Assembly: GCF_021028975.2 (NCBI RefSeq)
Contig: NC_059438.1
Location: forward strand, 24,428,001 to 24,492,000
Reading direction: 5' to 3'
Length of the DNA stretch: 64,000 bases
DNA from: Sphaerodactylus townsendi
Lineage: Eukaryota
Positions 9,898 to 63,277 of the stretch are shown here, one piece after another (the first letter of the stretch is position 1; each line of letters begins with the position of its first letter). The notes under the pieces were generated by a model. That model did not search any database and was not told the DNA's origin. It worked only from the letters and a program-made list of their open reading frames with translations. The translations under genes were made by a program, and so were the position numbers.

Positions 9898-10082
9898 CAG
9901 GGGTCTGCAACCTGCAGCTCTCCAGATGTTCAAGGACTACAATTCCCACCAGCCCCTGCCAGCATGGCCAATTGGCTCAGCATTGGCCAATTGGCTCAGC
10001 ATGGCCAATTGGCCATGCTGGCAGGGGCTGATGGGAATTGTAGTCCTTGAACATCTGGAGAGCCGCAGGTTGCAGACCCCTG
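9898..10082. mobile_element. Palindromic hAT MITE (TIR CAGGGGTCTGCAACC) with internal duplication
   Basis: Whole-element inverted repeat; 8-bp TSD ACTTAGAT at 9890-9897 and 10083-10090. Confidence 0.92.
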
Positions 10083-10891
10083 ACTTAGATGAACTTCTCC
10101 ATTCTGTGCAGCACACTTTTTTTTCCCTCCCAGAGGCTGGATTGTGAGGAGAAAAGTGTGGACCTCCAAATGGGGAGTGCTTTCCCAGGAGGGAGATTCG
10201 AGTGCATCATTCCTGCATCATTCTGTGTATCTGTGTTTGCTTTTCTTAAGACATTTCCTGTTTTGCTGCAGGAAATATAACAAACATTTTCTGAAGCTGC
10301 TGTTTTTGGTGGTGGATGGATACTAGAAAAAAACAGAGACCTTCAGGGTTCTTACATTTGTAAGAACTCAGTGGTAGTGTTCATGCTTCAAATAGACAAA
10401 GTTGTAGGTTTCAGTCTCTGCCATCTCCACTGATACAGATCTTGGGAAAGACCTCTTATCCATGGTTTTGGATGAGCTACGTGGTCCAGTGCACTGGCTT
10501 CATTGGGGGGTTTTAAGTTCCGGTCCCCCCCCCCCCTTATTTAGTTTGGGGCACGCCAGGAGATGGAGAACATCAAGAGCATCCGAGCCCTTGTTTTGAA
10601 CTGAGAGCACGTAGGGAAAGTCAAGAGATGGCTGTCCATTGACCCTGGGGAGGAAGGAGGTCGGATTGATGTGTGACGCTCTGCTGTCCATAAGCCCAAT
10701 TTGAATTGTGTGTGAGGGGAATGTTTGTGCTTTGCTGTGGTGGTTCCTGGAATGGGGGGCAGCCCAGCAGTGCCGTCTCGGTGACCCTGCGCTTTGGTAT
10801 TAACTTCCATATTAGTGATCTGTCAAGCACCTCATGCTCCAGACATGTGGAGGTGGAGGGAGAGCGAGGTATGGAGGGGAATGGCCTAGAA

Positions 10892-11325
10892 CAGGGGTAG
10901 GGAACCTTTAACACTCAAAGAGCCATTTGGACCCGTTTTCCACAGGAAAAGAAAACACTTGGAGCCGCAAATAATTTTTGACATGTAAAATAAAGATAAC
11001 ACTATATATATATGGGTTTTTTTCCCTTTTACTCCGCTCATTCTGAGAAGCGCATGGATGCGCCCGCCCTGCTGCCTGCAGGGCGGGCAAGGATGAAGCC
11101 AGCGGCTCGGCCTCACTGGCCGCCAGGAAAGCACCCGCCCCGCTCCAACGGGGCAGGCAAGAGAGGAAGCCCGTGGCGCGGCCCAGCCGACCGTGGGCAG
11201 TTGGTCTGCCCACCCTGCTGCCTGCAGAGCGGGCAAGGATGGGGCCGGCAGCTCGACTCATGGAGCCACAGTGCAAGGGCAGAAGAGCCGCATGCGGCTC
11301 TTGAGCCGCAGGTTCCCTACCCCTG
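10892..11325. mobile_element. Non-autonomous hAT (Charlie/Buster-type) element, TIR CAGGGGTAGGGAACCT
   Basis: Perfect TIRs; TSD GCCTAGAA at 10884-10891 and 11326-11333. Confidence 0.9.
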
Positions 11326-11333
11326 GCCTAGAA

Positions 11334-11468
11334 CATAGGTGTCAAACTCGCGGCCCTCCAGATGTTATGGACTACAGTTCCCATCATCCCCTGCCAGCAT
11401 GATGCTGGCAGGGGATGATGGGAACTGTAGTCCATAACATCTGGAGGGCCGCGGGTTTGACACCTGTG
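11334..11468. mobile_element. Palindromic hAT MITE (TIR CAYAGGTGTCAAAC)
   Basis: Near-perfect hairpin; TSD GCCTAGAA at 11326-11333 and 11469-11476. Confidence 0.92.
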
Positions 11469-11871
11469 GCCTAGAATGTGTGCAGTTTCATGAACGAGAA
11501 GCATGTGAACATTTCAGAACAGGCCCTGAGACTGAAATCTGTTAACCCCTGATGCACAAGCCAGGAATGCTGCGCAGAATGGGTGTAAACCTGGAGTTTT
11601 GGACAAAGCGTCGCCTCTACCCTTGGATATTCTGTGCTGTTTCATTGTGACGCTTGGGAAGCTTTATCCTTGTGAGTTCCCTTCGGTCTTTGGGAAGAAG
11701 CCATTTAAATGTTTAAAAAGGTTGAACTTGAGAGTTCTGATTATTGTCTCTTGGAGACAGTAATTTGGCAAACATAAGGTTGGGGTGGAGTGGAGGCACC
11801 CTAAACTACATGTGGCAGATCCATGATGAGAGCACACAAACCTACAGTTTTCTTTAAAAACATTCGTGCTT

Positions 11872-11931
11872 GTGTGTGTGTGTGTGTGTGTGTGTGAGAG
11901 AGAGAGAGAGAGAGAGAGAGAGAGAGAGAGA
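11872..11931. repeat. Compound (TG)n(AG)n microsatellite
   Basis: Directly visible. Confidence 0.97.
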
Positions 11932-60763: not shown

Positions 60764-60934
60764 AAAAGCAGGGTCCTGAACGAAAAAGAATCAAAAAAGA
60801 GCCCGCAGCAAGGAAGCCGAGCCTTCTCTTCGGGATGGGCCTTTCAGGAATCCGTGCCGGGTACCCTCTCTCCGAGCGCCAGCAGGTCGCCCTTCTTATG
60901 CAGATGACAGCAGAAGAGTCTGCCAACAGCCCCG
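60764..60934 (+). CDS. ANKRD11: ANKRD11 coding exon 3 ([57 protein letters not shown])
   Basis: (CT)n tract plus aacAG acceptor, donor CCG|gtatgt; 171 nt, phase 1-1; contains the conserved [19 protein letters not shown] motif. Confidence 0.96.
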
Positions 60935-61408
60935 GTATGTGTGGAGAGGCTCCCTGGCACTGGGGCGGGGGGGGGGGGGCCTTGTGGGTTCCTTGAGGGG
61001 TTTTGTGGGTGCTCCTTGGGGGTCTCAGAAACATCCAGTGAGGTATTGAGTTGTCATGGCTGAAGGCTGAGCGGGAAGCTGAGTTGGTGGGGTCTCCCTG
61101 GACTGGCGAACTTGCAGCTCCTGTGAAGGGAGGCTTTGCTCCCTCCCCTGGGTCTGGGGCGCTTCCCTCCTCCAGAGAAGCCACAAGGGCTGCTTGCCCC
61201 AGTCGATGCTTAATCGCGGCCCTCCATTACCGTCTCCATTGTGTGTGTAGAGGCATTCCTGTGCCCCTCCCCCACGCAGCCACGGCCTCCACCTGATGGC
61301 AGGATTGAAATGTAGGGCAACAGCTCCCTCTAAAGGCTTCTGGGGGGCGGCTGTGGACCGAGCTCCTCCTCCACTCATGGTTTCTTCTTCTGTCTCTCCC
61401 ATCAGCAG

Positions 61409-61612
61409 TAGATACAACACCAAAGCATCCCTCTCAGTCCGCAGTTTGTCAGAAGGGAACTCCTAACTCTGCCTCCAAAACCAAAGATAAAGTGAACAAG
61501 AGAAATGAGCGAGGAGAGACTCGGTTGCACCGGGCAGCCATTCGAGGGGATGCCCGGCGCATCAAGGAGCTCATAATTGAGGGTGCTGATGTCAACGTGA
61601 AAGACTTTGCAG
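61409..61612 (+). CDS. ANKRD11: ANKRD11 coding exon 4 ([68 protein letters not shown]), first ankyrin repeat
   Basis: Tandem acceptor atCAGCAG (alternative start 61406), donor CAG|gtaact; 204 nt; ankyrin GETRLHRAA motif. Confidence 0.96.
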
Positions 61613-62590
61613 GTAACTGATTGGACTGTGGGGGAGCAAGAGTGGAGGGTTCAGCTTGAACAGCAAACGTGGCAAACGTGATGGGCCAGTTGAGTTTCCC
61701 GACTGGGCAGGAAACAATGATGCTCCTAATCCTTGTCTTTCTATCAGACCCCAAAATGTTCTCCATATAGAATTAGCTGCGTCGGCTGCATGGGGCAGAG
61801 CATTTCATTGGTCATCTTAGTTTTGTCTTCAGAAGGAGCAGCGGAGTGAAGAGGCTGAGCTCTGTTGTGGATAGGCCTCAGTTTGGAGCACTGGCGTAGC
61901 AAGCCAAAGGTGCCCAGCTGTATGCCCAAAGTGCCCCTAACAGTGATTCTCAGCCCAAACGTATTCCTGGCTCATGTGATTTCCTTTTGGGAACTGTGGC
62001 TCCCTCAGAAGGTCTGCCCAAAGAACAGCTTGCCTTTCCAACCTGGTAGCAGCCTGTCTCTCTATTTTCTTTCCGGATCTTTGTCCGAGACGAGCGCTTT
62101 CTGTTATTGCGCTGCAACGTTTCCTGCCTGCGGGGCCACCCGACCGTCGGAAACGCAGGCAGTCTGGTCAGGTGGCCTGTTTGTGGGTGTCTCACCCATT
62201 CCCGCTCAGGGCAGGATGGCAATTCTGCCACCTGCAGATACATTTCTATCTTTCAGATATGAAGAGAGACAAATATGTACCTCAATTTAGGGGGTGGGTT
62301 CCACCTATTCAGTTAACTGAACATCTATTCTTTACTTATTTGTAGTGGAGAGCTGGAGTGTGTGTGCACGTGCACATATGTATATGTACTGCATAATCAT
62401 ATACAAAATATATGTGGACAAAACACCAGGCACGCACCTGCTGTCTCGTGCAGCACAGGGCAAGAGAGTGGATCTGTAGCCGAGCCTCAGTGTTGGCAAC
62501 TGGCAGCATCCATTGAGGCGCCATTATGACACAGTTCCCGATTGAAAGCGGCCACCCTTCTCATGTGTCTGTCTGTGTCCCCCTTGGCAG

Positions 62591-62733
62591 GCTGGACAGC
62601 TTTGCACGAGGCCTGCAACCGGGGCTATTATGACGTTGCCAAACAGCTGCTGGCCGCAGGGGCCGAAGTGAACACCAAGGGCTTGGATGATGACACTCCG
62701 CTGCATGATGCGGCCAGCAATGGGCACTACAAG
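62591..62733 (+). CDS. ANKRD11: ANKRD11 coding exon 5 ([48 protein letters not shown]), ankyrin repeats
   Basis: Acceptor cccttggcAG, donor AAG|gtcagt; 143 nt; ankyrin TALHEA and TPLHDAA motifs. Confidence 0.97.
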
Positions 62734-63210
62734 GTCAGTTCTTGAAAGAGTGGCTCTGGAGTCATCTCAAACAGTCTTCCCCCAGGTTTCAGCCTGTTAG
62801 GCCACCTCCTGCCCCCAGCCACAAAAGGACCCTTTGTAAGCTGCCCTGGATATTTCCCTCTGGCTGTCAGCTAGTGCCTGCTCTGCTTGTCTTTGTCCCT
62901 CATAAGAAGAACCTACTGAGATTAACTTAACCACCCAACAGCTGTGTAAGCCAGTACCTTGTCCTTCTTGACGTGTGCCACGGGGTCCTTTTCTTCAGAT
63001 GTCTGAACTGTAGCTGCCCTGTTTAGTCCTAGAGGCAAGCAGGCTAATGGAGAGTGTTTGTGGAAAGAAAGGGAACTCTCCCTGGATTTGGAGTCATAGC
63101 CATGGTCCATCCAGCCTTGCATGGTCTCAGCAGGGTGGGGGCGGCTCTTCCAGATCTCTGGCAGACTTCTTTCGCTGCCCTGCTGTTTGGCCCTCTTTCT
63201 GTTCCTGGAT

Positions 63211-63277
63211 GGCCCTCCAGATGTTATGGACTACAGTTCCCATCATCCCCTGCCAGCATGATTCAAGTTTGACACCT
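63211..63277. mobile_element. Partial hairpin hAT MITE (same variant as 11334)
   Basis: ggccctccagatgttatggactacagttcccatcatcccctgccagcatga...tttgacacc. Confidence 0.75.

Follow-up and report, generated by a model that had tools for sequence, protein, structure and literature searches.

A shared palindromic core with six classes of hAT-type ends in a 64-kb stretch of the Sphaerodactylus townsendi genome

The 64-kb stretch of the Sphaerodactylus townsendi genome analyzed here (contig NC_059438.1, positions 24,428,001–24,492,000; hereafter the window) harbors 12 copies of a short palindromic element, which are referred to below by their first position in the window. All of the copy counts given in this study refer to this one window and these 12 copies, corresponding to a density of one copy per 5.3 kb. 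An earlier examination of the letters alone (hereafter the sequence-only reading) had named 12 sites with a common core. The core was indeed found at all 12 of them, and a BLAST search of the window with one of the copies revealed no 13th. Both arms are present in eight copies (9898, 11334, 26600, 36090, 54591, 55820, 56018 and 60438), while four are incomplete: 15649 lacks 13 nt of the outer left arm, 57420 consists of the right half, and 25099 and 63211 are internally deleted. Near-complete copies span 124–185 bp, typically about 140 bp, and the length of the centre varies freely among copies. The centre of 9898 (9960–10013) contains a 19-nt unit repeated 2.9 times, and rearranged centres are also seen in 54591, 55820 and 56018. 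The two-arm core pattern occurs five times in the window versus 0.00 times in 100 shuffles, and the four copies that were folded gave z-scores from −18 to −26. The elements are non-coding, with no Pfam hits in the 147 frames searched out of the 150 longest in the window and no Rfam matches.

Based on their structure, the elements are palindromic, non-coding MITEs (miniature inverted-repeat transposable elements) of the hAT superfamily (Buster-type). Target site duplications (TSDs) of 8 bp are exact in six copies (9898, 11334, 15649, 26600, 54591 and 60438), agree at 7 of 8 positions in 55820 and in 25099 (with its end at 25177), and at 5 of 8 in 56018. The TSD of 36090 is partly deleted, and none could be resolved for 57420 and 63211. 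At 15641–15780, both TSD copies are kept despite the lost left tip of the MITE, and the site resembles the head of a tRNA-type short interspersed element (SINE). TA occupies target positions 4–5 in all 11 left flanks considered, i.e., those of the seven MITEs with a clear TSD and of the four longer elements described below (the other five MITEs being left out); TA-centred targets are likewise reported for Charlie-like hATs of Anolis (PMC3014272). Separate, TA-centred duplications of 8 bp indicate that whole elements were moved by hAT transposition and that each copy is a separate insertion. The terminal inverted repeats (TIRs) begin with YARNG in five of the six end classes, the exception being the class of 11334, which has Y at base 3, and they are close to the published TIRs of hAT-HT1, hAT-HT2, hAT-N5, OC1 and Buster2; the first 15 nt of 56018 are identical to the Buster2 TIR. 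An assembly artefact was ruled out by the separate flanks, the separate TSDs and the differing arms. A tandem-repeat or RNA family was rejected, and so was a miRNA-type hairpin as the primary identity, since TSDs and hAT ends account for the hairpin.

The sequence-only reading described ends of about 25 bp that differ among copies with the same core. The variation of the ends is evident, but the variable part measures 23 nt (22 nt in the GTGTCC class). Multiple ends are present as proposed, except that the end of 56018, previously listed as one of its own, matches the end of 31271 at 21 of 23 positions and is probably a variant of it, which leaves six classes as the safe count. The CAGTGGTGGCG grouping of 15649, 57420 and 60438 also holds, but not with a single type of core, as 15649 and 60438 lack one C that is present in 57420. 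Between elements, 12 of the 23 end columns are variable versus 6 of the 33 core columns (Fisher p 0.010; aligned from the tip), and the mean divergence among the eight two-arm elements is 28% for the ends and 5.7% for the core arms. Left and right arms of the same copy differ at 6 of 184 positions in the ends (3.3%) and at 8 of 264 in the core (3.0%). This equal within-copy decay indicates that insertion is not followed by hypermutation of the ends, and that the contrast between ends and core sits between founder elements. The 33-nt core arms are identical in 36090, 54591 and 56018, which represent three classes, while their ends are 5–6 of 23 bases apart. The end classes share 57–87% identity and have GGNNC at bases 19–23 in common. 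With the exception of one pair, the core tree has the shape of a star.

Four hAT elements without the core (10892, 16957, 31271 and 39533) are also found in the window (Table 1), each with two unlike ends, designated A and B. In all four A ends, the 15-nt TIR is followed by a short stem, whose left arm stops at base 23, and a 2-nt loop, and no stem of this type is seen in any of the four B ends. Buster2 and the autonomous OC1_Das have the same build at their 5′ ends, that of OC1_Das lying upstream of the transposase gene; the A end is therefore regarded as the 5′ or left end. MITE ends do recur on 10892, 31271 and 39533, as the sequence-only reading reported, with the restriction that only one of the two ends shares the full 23 nt. 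Thus, 26600 matches the A end of 10892 at 23/23, 9898 that of 39533 at 22/23, and 57420 and 60438 that of 31271 at 22/23, while 54591 matches at 22/23 the 5′ end of OC1, an autonomous, transposase-encoding and horizontally spread element from outside this genome that is found in a lizard (PMC3621081). Both MITE arms match the A end, and the B ends match worse. Past base 23, identity with the in-window partners drops to 3–5 of 17 and, in all matched classes, the similarity ends exactly at the 2-base loop of the partner's subterminal mini-palindrome. Four of the six classes have a partner at 22–23/23 among nine candidate ends, a number reached by none of 20,000 column shuffles (mean 0.018). A tree with the 11 MITE ends as one clade apart from the four partner ends was rejected (p-AU 0.003; 23 columns, with no strongly supported fork). 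No core element with an end of the SPIN type seen in 16957 is present in the window.

Comparison of the core with the four longer elements gave no match below an E-value of 1.8 and, in a word search of OC1, three of the five core words were absent and the other two lacked core context. The heptamer CCAGATG stands at the start of the core and also 5 nt past the junction in OC1; being an after-the-fact observation, it was not used. Relative to the four longer elements and OC1, the MITEs do not keep both the 5′ and the 3′ end of a parent, and their interior is not homologous. Because the core is missing from the longer elements and OC1, the MITEs do not appear to be internal deletions, but have a foreign core flanked on both sides by a left end.

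Table 1. Copies of the palindromic MITE, coreless hAT elements and an example of the THAP11/ZNF143-like site in the window.
Feature	Position	Strand	Remarks
Palindromic MITE, TCTGC end class, exact TSD	9898..10082	.	End 22/23 to 39533 A end
434-bp non-autonomous hAT without core	10892..11325	-	5′-type (A) end 11303–11325
Palindromic MITE, CAYAGGTGTCAAAC class, with short centre and core variants of its own	11334..11468	.	Best window partner match 16/23
MITE, CAGTGGTGGC class, core minus one C	15649..15772	.	Outer 13 nt of left arm lost
186-bp SPIN-type non-autonomous hAT without core, TSD 7/8	16957..17142		
Internally deleted MITE, CAGGRGTGTCCAAC class	25099..25177	.	TSD 7/8
Palindromic MITE, TAGGG class, exact TSD, no mismatch in outer 54 pairs	26600..26749	.	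End 23/23 to 10892 A end
501-bp non-autonomous hAT without core	31271..31771	+	A end 31271–31293; TIR close to Anolis hAT-HT1
Palindromic MITE, TCTGC class	36090..36236	.	Small deletion spans right junction
THAP11/ZNF143 SBS2-like site, example arm of 36090	36175..36199	-	23/25 to consensus
527-bp non-autonomous hAT without core	39533..40059	+	A end 39533–39555; ends related to the 10892 ends
Palindromic MITE, OC1-type end, exact TSD	54591..54728	.	22/23 to 5′ end of autonomous OC1_Das
Palindromic MITE, CAGGGGTGTCCAAC class, TSD 7/8	55820..55965	.	Best window partner match 13/23
Palindromic MITE, CAGGGGTGGCCAACC end, probably variant of 31271 class	56018..56150	.	21/23 to 31271 A end
Right half of MITE, CAGTGGTGGCG class, core with C	57420..57502	.	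22/23 to 31271 A end
Palindromic MITE, CAGTGGTGGCG class, core minus one C, exact TSD	60438..60583	.	22/23 to 31271 A end
Truncated MITE, 11334 class	63211..63279	.	Left end and most of right arm gone

The MITEs bear the same 5′-type end on both arms. In an alignment of nine copies, 20 of 67 stem pairs were found to be changed on both sides (13 in the ends and 7 in the core), which exceeds all of 500 shuffles. Each of such changes needs two mirrored hits unless one arm was copied from the other, and the result thus fits the arm-to-arm (fold-back) copying that had been suggested previously. At 10884–11476, the coreless element 10892 and the MITE 11334 form a tandem pair with one shared TSD (three copies of the 8-mer), and the A end of 10892 lies 143 nt from the MITE end as a direct repeat (23/31). 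To judge by this layout, the arrangement is a natural substrate for conversion. Inter-element recombination between hAT families has been documented in Anolis, where it was shown for hobo_AC (PMC3014272).

The best reading of these data, adopted here with moderate confidence, is repeated capture of 5′ ends combined with fold-back copying. Any Buster-type hAT that happened to be active would serve as the donor, its 5′-terminal 23 bases replacing one end of the MITE via short conversion or template switch, probably aided by the identity among the end classes and the common GGNNC. Fold-back of the hairpin would then template the second arm and yield a symmetric element, which the transposase of the partner may amplify. 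On a weaker footing, the core may be retained as compensation for the absent subterminal region, possibly through a THAP11/ZNF143-type site on each arm. Horizontal transfer is reported to have brought OC1, hAT-HT1 and SPIN to lizards, so a resident core bearing their ends must have gained them afterwards, by copying or by selection. Copying is favored because a switch needs 5–8 changes in 23 bases with the core unchanged, the matches come close to identity, and a substrate can be seen in the window. The sequence-only reading had set against its own proposal a single family with congruent trees of core and termini and no distinct partners, and the findings do not refute the proposal: coreless partners exist for four of the six classes, the clade of MITE ends is rejected, and the core tree is a star.

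Several observations weigh against capture with fold-back copying. No partners for the classes of 11334/63211 and 25099/55820 were found in the window (best matches 16/23 and 13/23, respectively); TIRs similar to those of these two classes are published for Anolis TcMar-N15 and hAT-N5 (PMC3014272). No transposase was detected in the window (0 Pfam hits in the 147 frames mentioned above), none of the 12 copies combines one core with two unlike ends, and an empty fold-back element of 48 bp was not found in the window. The trees were built on 23 and 46 columns and have almost no supported forks, and the shuffling of stem pairs ignores the relatedness of copies. In addition, Hermes donors with two left ends are reported to keep little activity, with about 220 bp per end being needed (PMC10368747), and piggyBat with two left ends to be inactive. 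Given these data, a mobile 140-bp element with two 23-bp left ends is unexpected unless Buster-type enzymes differ; either these enzymes may follow other rules, or the core may compensate.

According to another explanation, which we consider rather unlikely, a single MITE lineage tracked successive transposases by stepwise point changes in its outer 23 bases, without taking any DNA from partners, while arm-to-arm conversion fixed each change and purifying selection held the core. Only three bases separate the ends of 9898 and 26600, and likewise those of 56018 and 60438, for which point changes would easily suffice, and end distance and core distance correlate positively, but without reaching significance (rho 0.40, p 0.083). 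Moreover, the matched stretch is the portion that would be read by the transposase of a hAT with its BED domain, and selection for transposase binding would equally confine the match to the TIR and the first subterminal repeat. All of these points count against capture as well. On the other hand, stepwise change demands mobile intermediates in addition to 5–8 changes per switch and an unchanged core. T at base 9, the state of the A end, is present on all four arms of 9898 and 36090, while the B end of 39533 has G (one site in one copy).

It is more improbable that new elements were repeatedly born from the side of the partner, whose 5′ end would fold back at the mini-palindrome or switch template onto a resident MITE; each class would be a new element with the abundant core taken up as filler, a passenger rather than a functional parasite. 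That every matched class has its junction at the loop within the mini-palindrome of the partner would be accounted for in this way, and the core decays after insertion as fast as the ends, with a centre of freely varying length. Neutral filler, however, leaves both the same core in six classes and the SBS2 match described below unexplained, and no empty fold-back element is present in the window. That the MITEs are one family cross-mobilised by relaxed transposases, with end differences due to drift, as was proposed for the coral CMITEs (PMC2872659), would agree with the CA..GGT....AA.C frame seen in all ends, but this is highly improbable and appears largely refuted by the near-exact, class-specific partner matches, together with the rate contrast and the clade test.

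Apart from capture and fold-back copying, the persistence of the core itself requires consideration. A 13-nt THAP11 site (PMC3627581) is matched exactly (13/13) in 15 arms, and the 25-nt SBS2 consensus, which combines the THAP11 site with the 18-nt SBS consensus, is matched at 23–24 of 25 positions in 12 arms, versus 0.00 in shuffles. The probability of a 25-nt match arising by chance at a single origin is about 2 × 10−6, or 0.0017 when allowing for 1000 motifs (0.0015 for the 13-nt match), while the match to the 21-nt M4 consensus alone is not significant (0.28 when allowing for 1000 motifs). In view of the low chance of the SBS2 match, it is likely that the core was derived from, or drawn by selection towards, a THAP11/ZNF143 site, and the predicted site may be a reason for the persistence of the core. 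The common core variant has one mismatch to the SBS consensus (the ZNF143 part), located within its fixed AT. Core variants present on both arms affect the 10 fixed positions of the motif in none of six cases (p 0.09), and the variants inside the 21-nt consensus are all of tolerated types (3/3, p 0.06–0.08), which is no more than suggestive of purifying selection on a host-factor motif. In the left end of Hermes, the first two subterminal repeats form a quasi-palindrome that is bound by BED domains (PMC10368747). A wider scenario, on the whole unlikely, would make the core a long-lived, partner-independent mobility module, in which two inverted predicted THAP11/ZNF143 sites recruit a host factor, so that 23-bp left ends suffice, and which captured the 5′ ends of newcomers at a fixed point through horizontal waves of hATs across squamates and perhaps other tetrapods. 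If this were true, a symmetric element with 23-bp left ends would move although two-left-end Hermes and piggyBat barely do, and a mobility module would spread a housekeeping-promoter motif through the genome. Given its density in the window, the element may have seeded many THAP11/ZNF143-like sites.

The closest known system is that of the CMITE families I–VI of Acropora, in which different TIRs surround a conserved interior (Wang et al. 2010, PMC2872659). As in the window, these are short MITEs (about 100 bp) whose TIRs vary while the interior shows the higher conservation. In one coral family, the TIR is shared by an autonomous element without the interior, and a role for the coral interior has been proposed (PMC2872659). 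Unlike the present elements, CMITEs belong to the piggyBac superfamily, have TTAA targets and TIRs of 13–14 bp, and are not described as full palindromes in the available portion of that paper, which names one partner only and reports neither a fixed breakpoint nor a host-factor site; instead of end capture, its authors invoked transduplication and cross-mobilisation. The 8-bp, TA-centred duplications in the window do not agree with a piggyBac TTAA target. The element thus works like a CMITE, yet is a hAT and not a CMITE. Its interpretation as an end-switching MITE is partly supported, by the coreless partners and the arm copying, and the idea has a precedent in the coral elements (PMC2872659).

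Among hATs, Anolis hAT-N1_AC (135 bp, 57-bp TIR, more than 1000 copies; Novick et al., PMC3014272) has published first 20 nt identical to the A end of the SPIN-type element 16957, a likeness that concerns these 20 nt. A related core may be present in hAT-N1_AC as well. Eight orphan hAT families of Anolis share only TIRs with autonomous hATs, and no core shared across families is described for them in the available part of that paper (PMC3014272). OC1 (OposCharlie1), whose 5′ 23 nt match the class of 54591, has Buster-type ends, and its derivative OC1_Das_NA is an ordinary internal deletion with a 5′ and a 3′ end, in contrast to the MITEs in the window with a 5′ end twice and a foreign core (PMC3621081). 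In the literature consulted, there is no squamate hAT MITE with a shared core and many ends, although the Anolis supplement and the squamate SPIN paper may bear on novelty, and no account of a shared core, fixed breakpoint, doubled left end and host-factor site. Single MITE families are probably present in repeat libraries already; what is new here is the predicted THAP11 site within the SBS2 match on each arm.

CORE-type SINEs offer an analogy, as their conserved central module persists by adopting the recognition ends of successive autonomous long interspersed element (LINE) partners. The CORE domain and the 3′ end of a partner LINE are mentioned in PMC7983390. These SINEs differ in being retrotransposons with one 3′ tail and an RNA intermediate, and have no homology to the hAT MITEs. 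If end capture is true, a DNA-transposon parasite would survive its helpers through the exchange of recognition ends, in the way thought for CORE SINEs and LINE tails. This bears on the origin of MITEs and on the persistence of some of their interiors, and the system is tractable, with one core, six ends and at least one partner transposase of published sequence (OC1).

Outside the window, the two-arm pattern had no matches in viral or metagenome contigs. A one-arm motif scan yielded 83 metagenome loci, with a loose second-arm match (3 mismatches) in nine; as homologues, these loci were rejected, since Buster-type ends upstream and convincing second arms were absent from all of them. Thirteen (L003, L004, L005, L006, L017, L019, L030, L033, L045, L047, L056, L067 and L072) are located on contigs with similar accession prefixes and carry an isolated SBS2-like motif each, lacking a second arm; these are probably vertebrate host DNA. 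The locus was found in sequencing runs of five organisms, with no RNA run among those listed.

Other repeats are present in the window as well. Five SINE-like copies of about 270–280 nt with (CTT)n tails start at 12710, 20857, 27038, 33098 and 50879; their length and tail fit Squam3B3 of Gekkonidae (PMC7983390), a likeness by description only. Further hairpin repeats, which have related GT-rich arms and lack hAT ends, are located at 28809–29022 and 24607–24681. At 20772–21479, inverted arms of 60 nt, 588 nt apart and 90% complementary, delimit a different non-autonomous element.

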